From Candidatus Saccharimonadia bacterium (lineage in GTDB: Bacteria; Patescibacteriota; Saccharimonadia; Saccharimonadales; SZUA-47): a stretch of 39,668 nucleotides of DNA. Shown piece after piece: positions 2,303 to 38,695 of this stretch. The notes under the pieces were generated by a model. That model made no database searches, was not told the origin of the DNA, and was given only the letters and a program-made list of their open reading frames with translations. Where the stretch lies: contig CALLJT010000010.1 of NCBI GenBank assembly GCA_938050265.1, positions 1 to 39,668 on the forward strand, in the 5' to 3' direction. The position numbers and the translations under genes were made by a program. Within the stretch, counting starts at the first letter, position 1; the number at the start of each line of letters is the position of its first letter.

Positions 2303-2914
2303 ATGCCAATTATTAAGTCAGCTAAAAAGCGCGTACGAACCACGATCAAAGCGAGTATCCGTAATTCAAAAACTAAGCGAGACATGAGATCTACACTCAA
2401 ATCGTTCCAGACTGCCGTCGCTTCAAACAAAAACGTCGCACAAGCCCAGTCCTCTGCTCAGAGTGCTATTGATACAGCTGTCAAAAAGAACATCATCACC
2501 AAAAACAAAGCCGCACGCATGAAGAAAAACATCAGCGCTCAGGCAAAAACCGCGTCTACTGGACGCCCAACTACAGCTGCCAAAAAACCAGCTACTAAAA
2601 AAGCGACCGCGGCCAAGCCTGTGGCTAAAAAATCCCCAGCGAAAAAAGCACCCGCTAAAACAGCAGCTGACGATCTGACAAAAATTGAAGGTGTTGGACC
2701 GAAAATCAAAGATCTCCTGCACGCCGCAGACATCAAAACATTCCAGAACCTTGCAGATGCACCTACAGCAACAGTCAAGCAGGTTCTCGCAGACGCTGGT
2801 TCACGCTACGCAAGTCACGACCCTGGTACATGGGGCAAACAAGCCAAGCTTGCAGCTGATGGCAAATTCGACGAGCTCAAAACCCTCCAAGACAAGCTCG
2901 ACGGCGGCAAATAG
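2303..2914 (+). CDS. rpsT: 30S ribosomal protein S20 fused to a Lys/Ala/Pro-rich linker and a C-terminal helix-hairpin-helix-like domain
   Basis: The N-terminal ~85 aa (MPIIKSAKKRVRTT...KNKAARMKKNIS) are typical S20. The linker is KKPATKKATAAKPVAKKSPAKKAPAK. The C-terminus (LTKIEGVGPKIKDLL...TWGKQAKLAADGKFDELKTLQDKL) has an HhH G-P-K hairpin. A strong SD is present. Confidence 0.85.
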   Translation: MPIIKSAKKRVRTTIKASIRNSKTKRDMRSTLKSFQTAVASNKNVAQAQSSAQSAIDTAVKKNIITKNKAARMKKNISAQAKTASTGRPTTAAKKPATKKATAAKPVAKKSPAKKAPAKTAADDLTKIEGVGPKIKDLLHAADIKTFQNLADAPTATVKQVLADAGSRYASHDPGTWGKQAKLAADGKFDELKTLQDKLDGGK

Positions 2915-2953
2915 TTCCGCAGACCAGCTCCACTGCCCCTCGATCCGTTCCAA

Positions 2954-3075
2954 CTGACCCACGTCCACTTTTTCCTGTGAGAGTAGTATAAGCGTAGTGC
3001 AGCCAGAGGCATCCCGCCTTCGGGGTGGCCCTGCGCGAAACGCTACTCGATGAGGGAAACGTGGACGTGGGTCAG
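2954..3075. mobile_element. Palindromic ~120-nt MITE-like / structured repeat, copy 1
   Basis: Perfect 14-bp terminal inverted repeat TGACCCACGTCCAC...GTGGACGTGGGTCA. The core 2955-3074 is 120/120 identical to 5371-5490. It lies between the convergent ends of rpsT and holA. Confidence 0.7.
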
Positions 3076-3106
3076 CCTGTTTGTATGAGAACCATATGAA
3101 CACGGT

Positions 3107-4015
3107 TTATACAGTCAGTAGGTACAGTTCGAGTGCCGCATCAGGGTCAGCCACCGATTTTATATCCCTATCTAGATTGAGCAAATCACGTACGTGACGC
3201 TTGGCATCATCTTTACTGACATCGCGAGCTATTTTAAGCGTTTTTCGCGCCGAATACGGTGACTGTCCGGCTGCTATGAGTGCCGACTCAGATTGGGGCT
3301 GTGCAAACACTGCCTGCGTCAGCGAATGTAGCTGCCATGTCAGCATCGACACTATGTAGTGTGGATCAATACGCTGCTTGCGTTGGTCTCTGTATTGAGC
3401 GACTGCTGCCTGAGCGTCACCTGCAAACACTGCGTCTAGCATGTCGAATATACTACTCTGTGGAGACTGTTCAACGTGCCTGTCGATGTCGCTTTTCGTT
3501 ATCTCTGAGGTGACAATGCTCAGCTTAGCAAGTTCGTTTTGCAACATGAATGTATTCACGCCAGCTCGCTCGACCAGATACACCGCGTCACGGTACTGCA
3601 GCGTCATGCCACGCTCCTGAGCCTGAGCGACAACCCACTTCGGCAGCTCATTCTGCTTCATTTCAGGATAGTCACGAATGTCTGCGTGTTTTTTAAGCGT
3701 TTTCCACGCCACGGAACGCTTATCCAGTTTTGAACCTCGTATGACAACATCCACCTGGTCTGCAGTACGATCAATGAGCTGATCAATACGCTCAAGGAGC
3801 TGTTTGTTCTCGTGTGGCTCATGAACCACCACGAGCTTACGCTCCACAAGAAACGGCACGCTCTGCACCGCCTGAATGACTGCGTCTGCGTCTTTTTCAG
3901 AGGCGTCGATCAGCTCAACACCAAACTCCCCCCGCTCACTCCGTGCTGCGCTCACCATATCGGTCAGCGCTGCGTGTATAGCGACTTCGTTTTTGCCCGT
4001 TAGTACAGTAATCAT
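3107..4015 (-). CDS. holA: DNA polymerase III delta subunit
   Basis: 302 aa with an N-terminus and length typical of HolA (MITVLTGKNE...). holA-rpsT adjacency, as I recall it in Firmicutes-type genomes, is consistent. Confidence 0.75.
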   Translation of the reverse strand: MITVLTGKNEVAIHAALTDMVSAARSERGEFGVELIDASEKDADAVIQAVQSVPFLVERKLVVVHEPHENKQLLERIDQLIDRTADQVDVVIRGSKLDKRSVAWKTLKKHADIRDYPEMKQNELPKWVVAQAQERGMTLQYRDAVYLVERAGVNTFMLQNELAKLSIVTSEITKSDIDRHVEQSPQSSIFDMLDAVFAGDAQAAVAQYRDQRKQRIDPHYIVSMLTWQLHSLTQAVFAQPQSESALIAAGQSPYSARKTLKIARDVSKDDAKRHVRDLLNLDRDIKSVADPDAALELYLLTV

Positions 4016-4066
4016 AGGTACTAGTATGCAAGTAGTGGGTAGTAAGTAGCAAGGGACTAAACAGTA

Positions 4067-5023
4067 TTATGCCTGACACTGTGGGCAGGTATGTGTACCG
4101 CGGCCAGCAACCTTGGATTTTTCTATAGTAGACCCACAGCGTGTGCACGGAAGACCCTCTCGCCGAAACACCTGTGCGAAACTGGTGTAGCTGCCTGACT
4201 CGCCTTCTGCATTAACGTATGTTTTATCAGTACTACCACCGTGTTCTATCGACAGTTTTAATACTCGTATGAGCTCGGTGTACAAAACTCTTAACCTATC
4301 GTCGGAAACAGCACTCACACGCTCTGTCGGGTGTATACGTGCCGCCCATAAGCTCTCGTCTGCATATATGTTTCCCACACCAGCAAGCACACTCTGGTCA
4401 AGCAGCGCCGCTTTGATCATCCTCTTGTTAGCAGTGCGCATACGTTGAACAAATATTGTGTTCACAAACGATGTATCAAGTGGCTCTGGTCCCAGCTTCT
4501 TAATAAATGGGTCGTCCTGCACCGCGTAACTCGGCAGGAGCTTGACCCAGCCAAACTTTCGCTGATCGTTGAAATACAAATGTGAACCATCCACAAACTC
4601 AAACACGACCCGTGTCGACTTGTCAGGCAGGTGACCCACAAGGCTTTCGTTTGGGTGCCCTGCTCCAAACCTGACTTCGTCGGGTGAGGTATGAAGACTG
4701 ATAGTTGAGCGCTGACGGTCCGCAGCCAACTTTGGAGTTTCAACTTTGGACTTTGAGCTGTGTTGTTCATTCGGGACAAAAACAAGCTGTCCTGTCATTT
4801 TCAGATGTATCAGGATCGAATACTCAGTACTGAGTGTGATCACCAGTGCCTTGCCTCTCCTCTGTACAGATTCGACACGAGCACCAATCAAAAACGCATC
4901 GACGTCATTACTACTGTTTGGGAACCCCTTAGGCCAGTCGTGTGACACATCGGCAACAGTTCTACCAACGATCAGACGCTCAAGCCCACGTTTAACTGTT
5001 TCAACTTCTGGTAGTTCTGGCAT
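4067..5023 (-). CDS. mutM: Formamidopyrimidine-DNA glycosylase (Fpg/MutM)
   Basis: MPELPEVETVKRG N-terminus with catalytic Pro2, an H2TH region and a C-terminal CxxC...CxxC zinc finger. The start was moved to the ATG at 5023; the longer ORF to 5179 is an upstream read-through. Confidence 0.9.
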   Translation of the reverse strand: MPELPEVETVKRGLERLIVGRTVADVSHDWPKGFPNSSNDVDAFLIGARVESVQRRGKALVITLSTEYSILIHLKMTGQLVFVPNEQHSSKSKVETPKLAADRQRSTISLHTSPDEVRFGAGHPNESLVGHLPDKSTRVVFEFVDGSHLYFNDQRKFGWVKLLPSYAVQDDPFIKKLGPEPLDTSFVNTIFVQRMRTANKRMIKAALLDQSVLAGVGNIYADESLWAARIHPTERVSAVSDDRLRVLYTELIRVLKLSIEHGGSTDKTYVNAEGESGSYTSFAQVFRREGLPCTRCGSTIEKSKVAGRGTHTCPQCQA

Positions 5024-5115
5024 GCATACTAGTATCGTGTACTGTCGTGGAACTATCAAGCACGACCGACACTTCACTCTTGATAGATCCACCCGCGTAC
5101 TCAATACTAGAGAGT

Positions 5116-5352
5116 ATGGAATCAATCTCTGATATAGCACGTGCGCGCAAACCAATTGAGCCGACGCAGATAGCAGCATTAAAAAAGTATGCTCAAGATA
5201 CGCACAACATCCAGATCTCTGTAAAACAGTCGAAACACATGTACCTCATCTACGTACCGAGTGCCGCATTCGCCCAAAAGTTCAGACACGAAACACAAGA
5301 CATAACGCGCCAATGCGAACTCGACAAGCCACTCGTGATACACATCGGATAA
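5116..5352 (+). CDS. Small hypothetical protein (possibly DUF721/DciA-like)
   Basis: 78-aa ORF from the ATG at 5116; the track ORF begins at a GTG at 5047. The resemblance to DUF721 is weak and from recall only. Confidence 0.4.
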   Translation: MESISDIARARKPIEPTQIAALKKYAQDTHNIQISVKQSKHMYLIYVPSAAFAQKFRHETQDITRQCELDKPLVIHIG

Positions 5353-5370
5353 CCGCTACAGTCCGTGCGA

Positions 5371-5490
5371 TGACCCACGTCCACTTTTTCCTGTGAGAGT
5401 AGTATAAGCGTAGTGCAGCCAGAGGCATCCCGCCTTCGGGGTGGCCCTGCGCGAAACGCTACTCGATGAGGGAAACGTGGACGTGGGTCA
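5371..5490. mobile_element. Palindromic MITE-like repeat, copy 2
   Basis: Identical to 2955-3074. Flanked by the 9-bp direct repeat AGTCCGTGC (5360-5368 and 5492-5500). Its last 3 nt supply the stop codon of the HAD gene. Confidence 0.75.
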
Positions 5491-6066
5491 GAGTCCGTGC
5501 TGTCGAAGCGCCTGTGTGCACGAAGAGATCCCCGTATACAACTCAGCAACCATGCCCACACTGCGTGCACCGTCAACGTTACGCTGTACATCATCAAAAA
5601 ACAGGCACTGTTCAGGCTTGATTGCGAGCTGGTCACTCACGTATTCGAATAAGCGACGATCAGGCTTAACATACCCAACTGCCCCACTCTCGACTATCGC
5701 ATCAAAATAATTGTCGACCTGCTCTGTCGATAGATTGCGAGCCAAAAACCCAGCCCCCACGTTCGAAACAATCGCAGTCTTCAGCCCTCGGCTGCGCAGC
5801 TCTGCGATGACCTGCAGTAGCCCTGGGTCGAGCGCACCCATCTGGTCACGCTCCCGGACGACCTCTTCCAGCTCACGCCCATATATCTCAGATGCAGCAC
5901 GCCAAAACTCATCGCGGTCGATATGACCATAGTTAGCTGCTCGGGCAATATCTGCAAGCTCCTGATCCTGTGCATCGGTCCTGTCAGGGATATACAGATT
6001 CGCTAGCCCCCATAACGTGTCTGCATGCAGCACGCCAAAAAAATCAAACAGCACGGCTTTAATCAT
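5488..6066 (-). CDS. HAD-superfamily hydrolase (subfamily IA-like)
   Basis: Motif I-like VLFDFFGVL (second Asp replaced), then IVSNVG, KPD and FFDDVQRN motifs. ATG at 6066 is preferred over the TTG at 6081. Confidence 0.75.
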   Translation of the reverse strand: MIKAVLFDFFGVLHADTLWGLANLYIPDRTDAQDQELADIARAANYGHIDRDEFWRAASEIYGRELEEVVRERDQMGALDPGLLQVIAELRSRGLKTAIVSNVGAGFLARNLSTEQVDNYFDAIVESGAVGYVKPDRRLFEYVSDQLAIKPEQCLFFDDVQRNVDGARSVGMVAELYTGISSCTQALRQHGL

Positions 6067-6139
6067 GCGTACTAGTATCAAGTACGACCCTCATAAATGC
6101 AATGCGTTCGGCATGCTCCGCACTGCTGCTTGCCTACTG

Positions 6140-8635: not shown

Positions 8636-10345
8636 ATGCGATCATTTGTAATATACAACTATATATTGTATAGTATGTACATGAGTGTCGCTTCTCCTGA
8701 GCTCCTTCAGTCGCCAGAGGCTTTCAGCACCGAAGAGTTGAACCTTTTCGGCTTTTTCGCAGTCGAGGGCTACGAGCCTCGTATTATTCAGGACGAGGAA
8801 GGGGCAAAAGACGGAGAACTGAGTGAATTTATCTTTGTGCCGAAAGACCTGTTTGAAGCAGATAACGGTGCCGAAGATATGCCGTTCAGTAACGGCTTCC
8901 CCTTTACTCAATCTGGAGACTATAGGTGCAAAAAACATGGCTCGTATACCCAGACCGTCCTTGAACTTGGCGGGAGTGTGCTTGTCATGCCGACCAAATC
9001 AGCAGCTGGAGGCGTCAACACAGTTGTAGAAGGCATCTTCAACCCCCTGGACTTTGAAGAGGAGATGCGCAATAGAGGCATCGAACACACTGCAACTCGT
9101 GAAGAAGCAAGAGACATATTCAAAGCACTATCGCAACGAAAAAACTCAAACACACTAGCCGTTCAAGGCAGTTCAGGTGGAGCTGCAGCAGCTGCGCGCT
9201 TCATACATCTTGTGCCAGACCTTGCTAAACAGCTGTTTGGCGAAGATGTCGATGTATCAAAAATCGTATGGTTCGAAAGTGACTTGTCCGGCTCCGCACG
9301 TGACACACGCGCTTCCGTAGGAGCACCGATCGGCATGAAGCTACGTGCTACTAACCCCCATATAACACAGGGCAAAGAAGCAACGAGCAGTGTACACTCA
9401 CTCGCAGACCACGTCGTAACAGCCCACACGACAGAAGATACCGCTCGTATCAACCAGGCTATTGCCCAGCACCGACACCCACGTCGTATAGAACAAGCAC
9501 CTAACTGGCCAGGATTGATTGGCCGGAAAGCGTCAAAATTAGGTACGATTGCAGTTGTCCCGAGCATAGACAACGTGCAAGACTGGGCAGAAATCCACTC
9601 CAACCGAGAACGCCGTGCGTCGCTCAACCATGCGGCCGCACTCCTGAACCAAGCAGAAGGCATATCCGTCAAATGGTTCGATGAAGGACCCATGCCAGCA
9701 CACCACCCTGACGTGCTTGACATGTTCATCGATGCAACTGCAGACGCATCCAGAGAAGACAGACAATGGATAGACGATGCTGCAAAACGCATAGGCTACA
9801 AGGGACCAAAAGACAGAAAAGCACTCTCTGATGTGTACGCTGCTCTTTCTGTGCAGCAACTCGACCCATCTGCACTAAAAGGCATCGCAACTATACTCGA
9901 CAAGAACCGTGCACATGTCCGTGAATGGCTCTCAGGTAACAACGCATCAGCACTCATGTACGCTGAACCCCAAGAACAATACCCGACAGTTGGCGAGGGC
10001 CACATGCTACCCCCAATACTCAGTAAAACCATGGGGATAATGGCTGATAGTCGGTACGCGGACAACAAGACGTGGTCAAAAATGATGCACGAGATAGCCA
10101 AGTGGTCCTTAGGCGGCAGACTACCCGATAACGATGCTTGGACAGGCATACTCGATCTCGACGAGATAGTGTTCAACATCAATACTGGCGGAAACACACG
10201 ACCGCGGGCTATCGCAATCGCTACCCCCTATGTCCACCCGGAAGATTACGCGCAGTATCCAAACGAGGATCCCGTTACAGCAGGAGATGTCCTAGCACTC
10301 GCACACGAAGGAGGACCCCTGCATGGAGTGCTCGCCAAACTATAA
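8636..10345 (+). CDS. Large hypothetical protein with a possible alpha/beta-hydrolase nucleophile elbow
   Basis: 569-aa ORF. It has a G-S-S-G-G motif (GxSxG) in the context LAVQGSSGGAAAAARF and no other recognisable domain. The start is uncertain; alternatives are the ATGs at M14 and M16. Confidence 0.55.
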   Translation: MRSFVIYNYILYSMYMSVASPELLQSPEAFSTEELNLFGFFAVEGYEPRIIQDEEGAKDGELSEFIFVPKDLFEADNGAEDMPFSNGFPFTQSGDYRCKKHGSYTQTVLELGGSVLVMPTKSAAGGVNTVVEGIFNPLDFEEEMRNRGIEHTATREEARDIFKALSQRKNSNTLAVQGSSGGAAAAARFIHLVPDLAKQLFGEDVDVSKIVWFESDLSGSARDTRASVGAPIGMKLRATNPHITQGKEATSSVHSLADHVVTAHTTEDTARINQAIAQHRHPRRIEQAPNWPGLIGRKASKLGTIAVVPSIDNVQDWAEIHSNRERRASLNHAAALLNQAEGISVKWFDEGPMPAHHPDVLDMFIDATADASREDRQWIDDAAKRIGYKGPKDRKALSDVYAALSVQQLDPSALKGIATILDKNRAHVREWLSGNNASALMYAEPQEQYPTVGEGHMLPPILSKTMGIMADSRYADNKTWSKMMHEIAKWSLGGRLPDNDAWTGILDLDEIVFNINTGGNTRPRAIAIATPYVHPEDYAQYPNEDPVTAGDVLALAHEGGPLHGVLAKL

Positions 10346-10351
10346 TCACCA

Positions 10352-10474
10352 CTAAAACACCCCTGCTAGAGACACGATAGACACAACATGGGGCTCGTCA
10401 CCGTGAATCAACACACACTCCTCTAGCTTGACGCCAAGCCGTTTCTCAGCAAGCATGAAGATTGCTGCTCGCAT
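10352..10474 (-). pseudogene. Remnant of a HAD-hydrolase 3' end (40 codons)
   Basis: The translation MRAAIFMLAEKRLGVKLEECVLIHGDEPH... resembles the C-terminal region of a HAD gene, upstream of motif IV. Its ATG overlaps the relE stop (TAATG). Confidence 0.35.
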
Positions 10475-10731
10475 TATTTCCTGTACACGTCCTTTCGGTG
10501 CCTGACCCGCAAAATAAGTATAATAATCTCCTTGTCATGTATGTCGTATACCACTCTATAGTCTCCGACTCTCATACGCCACGAACTTGAACCAACCATT
10601 GACCGCACATTGCCTTTGCGTGGGTCTTGGGACAGTTTGTATAGTGCTTTGTCAATCTGAAGCCGTATATCTGGCGGGAGTTTCTTGCGTTCTCTCTCTG
10701 CAGATTTTACAAACTCAACTGCGTAGATCAT
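10474..10731 (-). CDS. relE: RelE/ParE-family type II toxin
   Basis: 85 aa: IYAVEFVKSAERERKKLPPDIR...WRMRVGDYRVVYDIHDKEIIILILRVRHRKDVY. Confidence 0.85.
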   Translation of the reverse strand: MIYAVEFVKSAERERKKLPPDIRLQIDKALYKLSQDPRKGNVRSMVGSSSWRMRVGDYRVVYDIHDKEIIILILRVRHRKDVYRK

Positions 10732-10954
10732 CAAATGTAAGTCCGCTCTCTTTCAGCACCTCCTCAAAAGATACAGTCGGCTCCCGGCGGCGCTTTTTGA
10801 CTACTTGTGCGTCCTCAATGTCTTCAAGCATGTCCGCAAAATGTTCATTCACAATCTGCGAAACGGATAGCCTATCGGCAACCGCCTTGTGCTTGATGAA
10901 ACTCTTCACTTTAGGATTTAGATAGATCGTCGTTTTTTCAGATAAATTGCTCAT
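10715..10954 (-). CDS. Antitoxin (ribbon-helix-helix / RelB-like)
   Basis: 79-aa ORF overlapping the relE start by 17 nt. The TTIYLNPKVKSFIKHKA segment is RHH-like. Confidence 0.7.
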   Translation of the reverse strand: MSNLSEKTTIYLNPKVKSFIKHKAVADRLSVSQIVNEHFADMLEDIEDAQVVKKRRREPTVSFEEVLKESGLTFDDLRS

Positions 10955-10960
10955 TCTACC

Positions 10961-10989
10961 ATTATAGCGTCATGACGTTATAGCGTCAA
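10961..10989 (-). promoter_or_regulatory. Canonical promoter TTGACG-N17-TATAAT, 6 nt upstream of the antitoxin ATG (leaderless-type), with repeats in the spacer
   Basis: -35 at 10984-10989 and -10 at 10961-10966. The region carries the direct repeat GACGCTATAA x2. The promoter overlaps the stop codon of the upstream Nudix gene. Confidence 0.5.
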
Positions 10990-11497
10990 TTTCTAAGTCA
11001 CCTCCAGCCGTTTCTAGATACTTTTGCATTGTACAGATGAATCCTGGAGTGTATTTCTTATCCCAGTGCGCGTTAATGTCCTGCACGATCTGCTCAACAC
11101 TCATGCGCCGCAACTCCTCAACCTCGTCATTTGGGCTAAACACCCAATCCCTTGGTGCGATGCAGGTATAGATACCGAAATGATGGTTTCCTGCATCAAT
11201 GGGTGACGCGTAGCCAGTGGCGACTTCTTGCAGGTCCGCCTCCATATCAAGTTCTTCTTTAAGCTCACGCACTGCAGCCTCTCGGTACGTCTCGCCAGGG
11301 TCAACATGCCCGCCAGCTGCGTGGTCCAGTAACCCACCAGACTTTTTATGTACCTGCACATACAGCTCGCCACTTACATCGAATACATATATTGCTGCGG
11401 CTCGGTGATGTAAGCGTTCAGTATGTATAACTTCCTTACTCGCCATCCGACCCGTGGATACATCGTGCTCGTCAACTACTTCGTACAGTTCAGGCAT
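10970..11497 (-). CDS. Nudix hydrolase
   Basis: Nudix box GGHVDPGETYREAAVRELKEELDM. Confidence 0.85.
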   Translation of the reverse strand: MPELYEVVDEHDVSTGRMASKEVIHTERLHHRAAAIYVFDVSGELYVQVHKKSGGLLDHAAGGHVDPGETYREAAVRELKEELDMEADLQEVATGYASPIDAGNHHFGIYTCIAPRDWVFSPNDEVEELRRMSVEQIVQDINAHWDKKYTPGFICTMQKYLETAGGDLEIDAITS

Positions 11498-21241: not shown

Positions 21242-22996
21242 CTAATGTGTTTTTTCAGAGCTCGAAAACTGAACTATGAGATCGTCAAGCTGCTTAACTG
21301 CTTGTAGTAATATGCCTTGTTCGTTTTCTGTTGCTTCAGCGAGCTCTTGTGCGAGGGCTGATTTTTTCGTTTTTGCGTATACTCGTACCAGTCTGCTAAT
21401 GAGTCGATGGGCTTGATAGCGCAGCTCATGTTCGTCAGTATGCTGGTAGAATTCCTCGTATAGAAGTGCCAACATTGTACCATATTCTTTGTTATCGAGC
21501 GAAGGTGTGACGCCTGGGTGGTCGGCGATCAGTCGCGCCGCAGTCTGAGCCCCCTCAGAAAACACATCCACCGGGATACGTCGGACCATCTCCCCTATCA
21601 CACTATGCTTTGAGCCAAGGGCCAAAATGTGCTGTTCGCGAACACGCTGTTCTTTAGCACTCTGCTGTTCATCTTGTTTTTGCGGGGCTACACGCTTGAG
21701 TCGTTTTTGTGTCGTCTGCTTGGCATTGATTTTGTCAGTGATTGTTTGTATCGACGTGCTTGTGCGTGTGGCCAGCACATCCGCATAATGCTCTTGTTCG
21801 ACGGGGTCGCTGAGCTGTTTTAATATAGGTATAATTTCGGCTACAAATCGTCGTTTACCCTGTGCGCTTTTCATGTCTACACTGCCTGCGACCCGGTCGA
21901 TCAGCCAATCCACCATATACTGTGGGTTTTCAACGACAGCCTGCCACAATCGGGCGTCCTGCGCGATCAGCTCGTCCGGGTCTTTACCCTCTGGGACCGA
22001 AATAATGCTCATGTCGATACCACCGAGGCTTTGAGCGAGTGGGATCGCCCGTTTTGCTGCGTCGTGACCCGCCCGGTCGTCATCAAACGCTACTCGAATA
22101 TCGCCCGTGAACCGCTTAAGACTTTTCAGATGATGCGACGTTAAAGCAGTTCCGGCGCTGGCCACAACATTACACACGCCAGCCTGATGAGACGCTACTA
22201 CATCCAGGTTGCCCTCGACAACGACCGCAAACCCTTGTTTACGGATGGCTTCCTTCGCGAGATAAAACCCAAACACTTGCCTGCCTTTGTCGTACAACTG
22301 TGTCGCTGGCGTATTGATATATTTCGGACCATGTGCCGTGTCGGACAGTTTACGTGCGGTGAACCCAACGGGCCGACCCTGTCCATCTCGCAGAGGTATC
22401 ATCACCCGACCGCGAAACATATCGTAGACATCTGAGCCACGACTACTCACAAGACCTGCCTGTTTCAACTCATCCGCATCGTATCCTTTCGATGTGAGGT
22501 GTTTTAGAAGTGCTTTGCCACTCTCTGGCGCATATCCAAACCGAAAATCCAGTATAGTCTGCTTACTATAGCCGCGTTTCTTGCGCACATATTCTAGTGG
22601 CGGTGTTGTGCGAGTTAGTTGTACCTGATAAAACTTCACCGCTGCTTCTACGGCTTCGTATAGTCGTTTTTTTGATCCAGAACTATTCGGTGCTTGGTCA
22701 CGAGTACCTGTGCGGTACTGCTCCAGATCGACACCGGCTTTCCTGGCGAGTACCTCAAGTGAACCTTTGAAATCCAAACCCTCTACTTCCTGAATAAAGC
22801 TGAACATATCACCACCGCGCCCTGAGCTGAAGTCATGCCATATTTGTTTCTCTGGGCTCACAACAAAACTCGGAGACTTTTCGTTTGTCCAAGGGCTCAG
22901 GCCTTTGAAGTTGCGACCAGCGCGCTTCAGCTGCACGTATTCACTCACAACGTCTTCTATGTCTAGGCGTGATTTGATATCTGCAACAGCATCCAT
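21242..22996 (-). CDS. dnaG: DNA primase
   Basis: The N-terminus is unusual: the zinc-ribbon region GLSPWTNEKSPSFVVSPEKQIWHDFSSGRGGDMFSF has no cysteines. A TOPRIM EGNLDV motif is present. The start was set to MDAVADIK (22996); the 41 upstream codons run into the repeat element. Confidence 0.92.
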   Translation of the reverse strand: MDAVADIKSRLDIEDVVSEYVQLKRAGRNFKGLSPWTNEKSPSFVVSPEKQIWHDFSSGRGGDMFSFIQEVEGLDFKGSLEVLARKAGVDLEQYRTGTRDQAPNSSGSKKRLYEAVEAAVKFYQVQLTRTTPPLEYVRKKRGYSKQTILDFRFGYAPESGKALLKHLTSKGYDADELKQAGLVSSRGSDVYDMFRGRVMIPLRDGQGRPVGFTARKLSDTAHGPKYINTPATQLYDKGRQVFGFYLAKEAIRKQGFAVVVEGNLDVVASHQAGVCNVVASAGTALTSHHLKSLKRFTGDIRVAFDDDRAGHDAAKRAIPLAQSLGGIDMSIISVPEGKDPDELIAQDARLWQAVVENPQYMVDWLIDRVAGSVDMKSAQGKRRFVAEIIPILKQLSDPVEQEHYADVLATRTSTSIQTITDKINAKQTTQKRLKRVAPQKQDEQQSAKEQRVREQHILALGSKHSVIGEMVRRIPVDVFSEGAQTAARLIADHPGVTPSLDNKEYGTMLALLYEEFYQHTDEHELRYQAHRLISRLVRVYAKTKKSALAQELAEATENEQGILLQAVKQLDDLIVQFSSSEKTH

Positions 22997-23071
22997 ACCT
23001 CTAGTATCGTGTATCGTCCTATAAAAACAAAGCATGTACGCTTCGAATGCCCTGTCTGCCATGCAGTGTTT

Positions 23072-23189
23072 CTGACCCACACTCACTTTTTCCTCAAGAG
23101 CAGTATAAGCGTAGTGCAACCAGAGGCGACCCTCCTAAGGGCGCCCCTGCGTGTAACGCTACTCGGAGGGAAAAGTGAGTGTGGGTCAG
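23072..23189. mobile_element. Palindromic MITE-like repeat, copy 3 (divergent variant)
   Basis: TIR TGACCCACACTCAC...GTGAGTGTGGGTCA, a perfect 14 bp. It is flanked by the perfect 9-bp direct repeat GCAGTGTTT (23063-23071 and 23190-23198). Confidence 0.8.
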
Positions 23190-23232
23190 GCAGTGTTTTG
23201 CCGCTTATGATTAAAATGGTAAAATTATAGGC

Positions 23233-25410: not shown

Positions 25411-25603
25411 ATACTTGTACTCCCTTATTTGTAATCCTAATGTATACGAAAACTGTTCACTTGGCAAGCTGACCTGCGCTCACTTTTCTAAACCCAAACG
25501 TTCATAGGGTGACAAGATTGAAGTTTTGTTCTTTAGGAATGATGCCATAGCATCATTTCTAAAGGAAAGACTTCCAGATTGTTAGCATAGGGGCGTTTGG
25601 GGT

Positions 25604-25624
25604 GGAAAAGTGAGTGTGGGTCAG
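25604..25624. repeat. Solo right-end remnant of the palindromic repeat family
   Basis: GGAAAAGTGAGTGTGGGTCAG matches the right terminus of copy 3 at 21/21. Confidence 0.5.
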
Positions 25625-25659
25625 CTTGGCAACACACAAGCACTAAACTAGCCATATCC

Positions 25660-38340: not shown

Positions 38341-38500
38341 CATACTGTTTTTGATATCTTCTCCAAGAACAAGCTACATCAACAGCACGCCAATCCCCCG
38401 CAACAACATGCGGTACCTTGATCGATGATGCTGTGTGTTTGTTTTTGCATAGCTACTCAAATACTACCACACACTACACGGCAATACATGAGGCAGCACC

Positions 38501-38618
38501 CTGACCCACATTCACTTTTTTCTCAAGAGTAGTATAAGCGTAGTGCAGCCAGAGACACCCTTCCTAGGGGTGGCCCTGCGCGAAACGCTACTCGGAGGGA
38601 AACGTGAGTATGGGTCAG
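38501..38618. mobile_element. Palindromic MITE-like repeat, copy 4
   Basis: TIR TGACCCACATTCAC...GTGAGTATGGGTCA (one mismatch and one G-U). The flanks GGCAGCACC and GGCAACATT match 6/9. It lies 77 nt upstream of tRNA-Ser. Confidence 0.7.
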
Positions 38619-38695
38619 GGCAACATTTGGTCAAGTCTCTTCTCTTTTGCTAACAGATACGGTACAATCTTTTCACGTAGTCACTCATAGATCGC

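Follow-up and report, generated by a model that had tools for sequence, protein, structure and literature searches.

The window, by which we mean the whole stretch of 39,668 nucleotides analysed here, makes up the whole of a 39.7-kb contig in a Saccharibacteria (TM7) MAG whose nearest relative on record shares only 69% identity in DnaG. Along it lie five palindromic elements (Table 1), a density of approximately one per 8 kb, all hosted by short spacers with housekeeping genes around them: those of rpsT-HHH/holA, HAD hydrolase/fpg, dnaG/unknown ORF and SPFH protein/tRNA-Ser, and the upstream side of a photolyase-related gene. Copy 3 separates the divergent starts of dnaG (−, ~22996) and ORF 23233 (+), and the tRNA-Ser gene (38696) follows 78 bp downstream of copy 4. 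The rpsT-HHH gene (ORF 2303-2914) is a fusion of ribosomal protein S20 with a C-terminal helix-hairpin-helix domain (203 aa; Pfam S20p + HHH_5), and the GC skew is negative over nearly the whole contig.

Table 1. Palindromic elements of the window, with their ends and flanking repeats.
Element	Positions	Strand	Length and ends	9-bp target-site duplication
Copy 1, subfamily D (putative MITE)	2954..3075	+	122 bp; inverted repeats 2954-2975 / 3054-3075; triplet GTC/GAC; lies between the stops of rpsT-HHH (+) and holA (-)	none recognisable (CCGTTCCAA vs CCTGTTTGT)
Copy 2, subfamily D (putative MITE)	5370..5491	+	122 bp; differs from copy 1 at first base	AGTCCGTGC, 9/9, at 5360-5368 and 5492-5500
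Copy 3, subfamily D (putative MITE)	23072..23189	+	118 bp; triplet ACT/AGT	GCAGTGTTT, 9/9, at 23063-23071 and 23190-23198
Copy 4, subfamily D (putative MITE)	38501..38618	+	118 bp; triplet ATT/AGT, one mismatch; right end ATGGGTCAG, one mismatch	decayed, 6/9: GGCAGCACC at 38492-38500 vs GGCAACATT at 38619-38627
Fifth element, another subfamily (putative MITE)	25469..25624	.	complete, 156 bp; left end degenerate, CTGACCTGCGCTCAC (end sequence CTGACCTGCGCTCACTTTTCT, 2 mismatches); right end GGAAAAGTGAGTGTGGGTCAG	8/9: CTTGGCAAG at 25460-25468, CTTGGCAAC at 25625-25633

A sequence-only reading of this DNA had described four ~120-nt copies of a rod-like element, and all four were recovered, the bounds of copy 2 being 5370-5491 rather than 5371-5490. 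The two copies that it called identical do match at 121 of 122 positions, the sole difference being the first base (C vs A); at the start of copy 2 an A stands for C and an extra G precedes it, that is, GA replaces the usual terminal C. Pairwise identity was 80% for copies 1 and 3, 85% for copies 1 and 4, and 88% for copies 3 and 4. The earlier description had to be corrected in places: the inverted repeats, given as 14 bp, are actually ~20–24 bp with true ends one base longer than reported, and the sequence at 25604-25624, taken for a remnant, is the right end of the complete fifth element. The window elements share ends of the form CTGACCCAC-NNN-CAC-T(4-5), the full end pair being CTGACCCAC...GTGGGTCAG, and an invariant 17-mer (AGTATAAGCGTAGTGCA) occurs four times where 0.07 occurrences are expected.

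Four of the five window elements are flanked by 9-bp target-site duplications, a feature that the earlier reading overlooked. Copy 1, which equals copy 2 and is without a duplication, suggests gene conversion or rearrangement between copies, not a simple new insertion. Comparison of the folding of each subfamily-D copy with that of shuffled sequence gave z values of −5 to −10.6, and the fifth element, whose interior is unlike subfamily D, is rod-like nonetheless (z = −11.8). No reading frame is open in all copies, and the six-frame translations of the element had no match in the protein database.

The elements also bear on the annotation of their neighbours. Every element end read inward has the form C-TGA-CCC, so that a TGA stop comes with it. 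One such TGA, in the right end of copy 2, terminates the HAD-hydrolase ORF (5488-6081, −), and the insertion of copy 2 may have reshaped the C-terminus of the hydrolase. At copy 3, the deposited DnaG (21242-23119, 614 aa) starts at a GTG within the element; judging by homologues and by the Zn-ribbon domain, its real start is the ATG near 22996 (584 aa). Gene callers are thus misled by such elements, which supply a TGA stop in the one case and take in a deposited start in the other.

The earlier statement that no partner gene accompanies the repeats holds within the window, in which tblastn found no transposase gene and no IS copy was present; outside the window, however, a partner does exist in the form of an autonomous IS. 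At one locus (L010, 5076-6219), a 1,144-bp IS with the same ends and a 9-bp duplication (GGTGTAGGG) contains a 349-aa ORF, which matched Pfam DDE_Tnp_1 (PF01609; E = 4.7 × 10−8, 33.5 bits against a cut-off of 23) and the NCBIfam IS4 model (NF033591; E = 8 × 10−25, 87.7 bits, under the curated cut-off of 152), the low score against the latter being that of a divergent IS4 lineage. The signature of the IS4 family is Y-(2)-R-(3)-E-(6)-K, and the transposase carries it as Y253-x2-R256-x3-E260-x6-K267, with residues that are invariant or nearly so. Its segment YAERFEIEEAFKDVK aligns with the YREK region of Tn5 (YTHRWRIEEFHKAWK), to which sequence similarity with Tn5 is confined. An AlphaFold model of the transposase (pLDDT 77, pTM 0.78) was compared with the PDB by Foldseek, and the best five matches were all Tn5 transposase–DNA complexes (E = 8.5 × 10−9 to 6.3 × 10−8, TM 0.54–0.60).

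More than 500 homologues of the transposase were found, mostly on ~1.2-kb contigs, as is expected of a repeated IS at which assemblies break. Complete IS copies numbered 46 (1,135–1,193 bp; from 61 metagenome loci and L010), 15 of them with intact 9-bp duplications, and the closest plasmid-borne relatives were Deinococcus transposases at 31% identity. When the IS was compared with the window by blastn, the matches were confined to the ends of the elements: the ends of copy 3 are those of the IS (95.7% over 23 bases), and the right end of the IS is resembled over ~26 bp. An origin of the element interior by internal deletion of the IS was considered and rejected, there being no interior similarity. 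The long IS-bearing contigs that we examined had few of the short elements nearby.

Shared ends, 9-bp duplications and an IS encoding a Tn5-like DDE/YREK transposase together lead us to conclude that the palindromes of the window are very probably MITEs bearing the ends of a ~1.14-kb IS4-family IS that is widespread in Saccharibacteria. They are short and non-coding, they have terminal inverted repeats and a duplication of fixed length, and they share their ends with a transposase-encoding IS; the earlier impression of a mobile-looking repeat family is upheld. That the family was active recently is indicated by two nearly identical copies and two perfect duplications within the window. The repeat is thereby identified and its mobilising partner named, and a reduced Saccharibacteria genome is seen to harbour recently active mobile DNA. 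The MITE family is real and recently active, and it is undescribed as far as the searchable literature shows, where our search found neither this IS nor this MITE family described, nor any MITEs in CPR bacteria.

In the mechanism that we propose, the ~350-aa transposase from an IS copy elsewhere in the genome would bind both ends of an element, and excision and reinsertion would follow the manner of Tn5/Tn10, with a 9-bp staggered cut of the target. Against this model stand the lack of an IS copy and of a transposase gene in the window, the missing duplication of copy 1, the sub-cut-off NCBIfam IS4 score, the unlikeness of MITE interiors to IS interiors, and the triplet GTC at the ends of copies 1 and 2, which was seen in none of the 46 sampled IS copies.

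To place the window elements in a wider family, we searched genome and metagenome contigs. The conserved core of subfamily D (GTATAAGCGTAGTGCANCCAG) had 0 matches in either, so that the subfamily is absent from both collections, and a pattern defined by the ends only (TGACCCAC NNN CAC ... GTG NNN GTGGGTCA, with 75–105 bases between) retrieved 52 loci, nearly all in Saccharibacteria MAGs, with elements of 103–132 bp. The window included, the family ranges from 103 to 156 bp and is non-coding. Scored in strict register, flanking 9-bp repeats with at most one mismatch were present at 34 of 56 elements and at none in the shifted control. The MITEs from the scan fell into ~20 sequence clusters whose interiors are often unrelated, and every one of them folds as a rod. 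They are almost always intergenic, typically 10–100 bp from the adjoining ORFs, in tandem (30), divergent (15) and convergent (7) contexts, counts to which no formal test was applied; relative to flanking genes, 16 lie in sense and 14 in antisense orientation, without bias.

Several loci of the scan merit separate mention. MITEs with duplications were found at five loci (L014, L018, L019, L026 and L028) of MAG SMAG_U12547, labelled Candidatus Limnocylindria (Chloroflexota), and likewise in a chromosome labelled Parcubacteria (L049; OY970378.1); these occurrences beyond Saccharibacteria could be due to mis-binning, mislabelling or horizontal spread. The sole match in a cultured actinobacterium (Kribbella sp., L020 3502-3628) has the terminal 9-mers and G-rich arms; it has no target duplication, its palindrome continues into the flanks, and it is probably a chance match of an unrelated palindrome. 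At L035, a 132-bp MITE (3795-3926) lies within a 722-codon ORF (2801-4969) without interrupting the frame, which could represent an in-frame insertion or two genes fused by a crude ORF call.

The paired changes in the arms, which the sequence-only reading had listed as GTC/GAC, ACT/AGT and ATT/AGT with an apex of CCCG/CGGG or CCCT/AGGG, are all present. It took them as pointing to selection on a folded RNA or ssDNA and not just on transposase-binding ends. For the outer arms this is not supported: the covarying arm triplet is position 10–12 of the end, between the invariant CTGACCCAC and CAC, and the same triplet occurs at both ends in 43 of 46 IS copies, in which the two ends lie 1.1 kb apart with a protein-coding gene between them. 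Ends are matched in the 1.1-kb IS too, and a role of the triplet in transposase specificity, as set out below, would explain the matched arms without RNA.

For the inner stems, pairing was evaluated with a covariance model based on six members with the window-type core. The model recovers all MITEs and scored the ten copies of genome JTS-RE396 at ~70 bits on the core-sense strand against ~50 on the other. The core (GCGYT..CRCGCRG - hairpin - CYGGYTGCACT..GC - bulge) is common to five genomes, with a bulge of 5–8 nt that is always on the same side, and copies 1 and 3 of the window differ by four pairs altered on both sides with pairing kept. Joint treatment of all subfamilies by MAFFT and RNAalifold yielded the terminal stem only, and a subfamily seed with the covariance model was needed. 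In the resulting 17-member alignment, 90.2% of cells were paired, compared with 79.4% in shuffles and 35–46% in slid controls; 18 of 43 pairs were changed on both sides, and not one of 500 shuffles equalled the real alignment on any measure. Support extended to helices 1, 2 and 4 but not to helix 3. Pairing of the inner stems is thus statistically supported and maintained, as the sequence-only reading had suspected, and the signal is not specific to RNA, since the same covariation is expected from a DNA palindrome. G:U cells (29) and A:C cells (23) in this alignment each come mostly from one column, and a cruder family-wide count of the two is balanced as well.

The apical hairpins are entirely different in sequence and length from genome to genome, a pattern that looks like substitution by new palindromes and unlike stepwise compensation. 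The upkeep of pairing is most likely due to template-switch correction at the DNA level or to selection for the mobilisation of a very short transposon, both of which are candidates. Template-switch correction of quasipalindromes is an established mutational process, and through such quasipalindrome or hairpin correction, or through selection of the kind just named, the interior of the rod would be kept paired. A hairpin would arise whenever an element is co-transcribed, and nothing in this requires an RNA function. More generally, covariation in a palindromic mobile element calls for caution, as it is no evidence of a structured RNA.

These results bear directly on three other explanations of the elements. 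That the rod is itself the functional product, as a structured non-coding RNA gene or a cis-regulatory RNA whose mobility is incidental, is in our judgement quite improbable. Such a product would account for the low folding z values, for the supported pairing with its double-changed pairs, for an asymmetric core whose one-sided bulge is kept in MITEs of five genomes, and for one G:U column kept in 13 of 17 members; nevertheless, the G:U and A:C counts prefer neither strand, orientation relative to genes is random, and interiors are unrelated among subfamilies that share ends and duplications, as are the apical hairpins of different genomes, which look like replacements by new palindromes. The window copies contain no internal sigma70-like promoter or intrinsic terminator, and a search of Rfam with the window copies and 17 representative loci at gathering and relaxed thresholds returned no family, the best relaxed scores being far under gathering, which agrees with the earlier failure to match the element to a named RNA motif. 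The functional RNA reading is therefore not supported, and the overall interpretation of the sequence-only reading is partly supported.

A read-through hairpin could still have been domesticated, stabilising, terminating or processing the adjoining mRNAs, a role suggested for ERIC, Correia and RUP elements, with copies retained on its account. Such domestication would complement the MITE reading rather than replace it, and we consider it unlikely: the elements do fill short spacers 10–100 bp from gene ends, the window copies adjoin rpsT, holA, fpg, dnaG and tRNA-Ser, and the hairpins are very stable on both strands, yet intact duplications indicate young, unselected insertions, and neither orientation nor context (30/15/7, without formal test) departs clearly from random. 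Palindromic, intergenic and multicopy elements might also be REP/BIME-like or IS200/IS605-type hairpins moved as ssDNA by a tyrosine (Y1/RAYT) transposase, for which the single orientation of the subfamily-D copies could be cited. This explanation has next to no probability, and we regard it as refuted by the 9-bp target duplications, which accompany true terminal inverted repeats, and by an IS with the same ends whose transposase is of the DDE type rather than Y1; moreover, the family as a whole shows no orientation bias with respect to genes. In the window, the core of subfamily D is on the plus strand in four of four copies, which is not significant by itself (P = 0.125).

Returning to the MITEs and their partner IS, we compared the end triplet with the transposase sequence. 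The IS triplets were ACT (27), CCT (8), ATG (4), CTG (2), GTG (1) and ATT (1), and perfectly matched triplets were present in 46 of 62 MITEs. In the transposase tree, the CCT and ATG types arise in several separate places. An N-terminal motif, LNAAGRxLG-[51]-NR-[54]-TGE-[58]-R, covaries with the triplet: ACT-type transposases have L51, W/F54 and N58, whereas seven of the eight CCT copies, which belong to three of four clades, have V/A51 together with S/A54, and residue 58 is S or A in every xTG type and N in every xCT type. The mutual information between column 51 and the triplet amounted to 1.02 bits, and permutations gave at most 0.91. The outside end of Tn5 (CTGACTCTTATACACAAGT) has the same CTGAC (1–5) and CAC (13–15) as these ends. 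In Tn5, residue 54 contacts end positions 10–12 (PMC2632911). The triplet thus probably determines specificity in co-evolution with the transposase, the residue-to-base mapping being drawn from covariation, and its probable reader is the DNA-binding helix in the N-terminal part of the enzyme (residues ~51–58). Such a determinant would account for the same triplet at both ends and for variants that change together.

Within single genomes the triplet is exceptionally variable. Its diversity and that of the rest of the element were 0.59 and 0.058 in JTS-RE396, 0.23 and 0.021 in USDE_metabat.8, and 0.49 and 0.13 in cluster 2, whose members come from several MAGs; inside one genome it is thus ~10x more diverse than the remaining element, yet matched end to end, with most duplications intact. 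Mismatch between the two ends of an element was ~0.09–0.10 per position, far under the diversity between copies, so that copies seem to have been born with different matched triplets. MITE triplets TAG, CCC, ACC, AGT, GTC and GCT do not occur in the IS sample, and near-identical MITEs of one genome carry many different triplets, which argues against a simple model with one transposase. The diversity may stem from several specificity variants per genome, from patch conversion from IS ends or from a concerted mechanism. On one contig (L117) two IS variants are found together, one with CTA/CTA ends and a divergent, frameshifted transposase (4898-6121) and one with ACT/ACT ends (9917-11064), which shows that several end/transposase variants can coexist in a genome.

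Single mismatches within a pair of triplets (clusters 0, 1 and 2; L001-L052) are mostly transitions, often in a CG context (ACG/ATG, GCG/GTG, CCG/CTG). The notion that elements with mismatched triplets are old copies was rejected, as duplications were intact in 11 of 16 mismatched and 33 of 44 matched elements (Fisher's exact test P = 0.74); with duplications equally intact, a matched triplet is not strictly required. A copying of the triplet from the target duplication, suggestive in three of three window cases, failed across loci.

Two further readings, one of the triplet and one of the rod, can be offered only tentatively. Positions 10–12 may serve as a three-base 'address' for each transposase variant, in an arms race or tracking between IS and MITEs inside the very small genomes of CPR bacteria, or the rod may aid the joining of the ends of a ~110-bp transposon. 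On the former reading, IS lineages would have repeatedly altered their address together with residues 51, 54 and 58, and MITEs would alter theirs, at both ends, far faster than their remaining sequence. On the latter, a transposon of ~110 bp is shorter than the persistence length of DNA, and the rod may be required for bringing its two ends together.

Comparison with known systems places the partner IS beside IS50/Tn5 within the IS4 family (IS10/Tn10, IS231), with which it has in common a DDE_Tnp_1 domain, the YREK signature, a predicted fold closest to that of Tn5, a 9-bp target duplication and ends beginning with CTG. It differs in that its transposase has ~350 aa against 477 aa in Tn5, with an identity of only ~13–15%, falls under the NCBIfam IS4 cut-offs and occurs almost only in Saccharibacteria. 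The short elements resemble other bacterial MITEs that give rod-like transcripts, namely Correia/CREE of Neisseria, ERIC/IRU of enterobacteria, RUP of Streptococcus pneumoniae and Nezha of cyanobacteria, which are likewise 100–160 bp, non-coding, intergenic and multicopy, with inverted repeats, duplications, a long imperfect hairpin and subfamilies with compensated arms. Correia and RUP elements duplicate TA; the elements described here have different ends, a 9-bp duplication and an IS4-type partner.

For the triplet, the closest parallel is the discrimination between outside and inside ends by Tn5 (E54K), in which end positions 10–12 also vary between fixed flanks and residues ~51–58 change along with them. 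The Tn5 case is that of one element with two end types and laboratory mutants, whereas here the end/transposase variants are natural (ACT, CCT, ATG, CTG, GTG, ATT and CTA), and the MITEs have more triplets still. Tn5 is a major laboratory tool; the covariation of triplet and transposase constitutes a natural data set on end reading of the Tn5 type, which could help in designing orthogonal transposase/end pairs.

One arrangement joins both kinds of element directly. At L010 (4942-6219; also listed as L053), a MITE with ATG/GTG triplets and a full IS with ACT/ACT triplets are arranged head to tail, and the target GTGTAGGG is present three times, between them and on either side; this implies that one site was hit twice or that the event was a coupled one.
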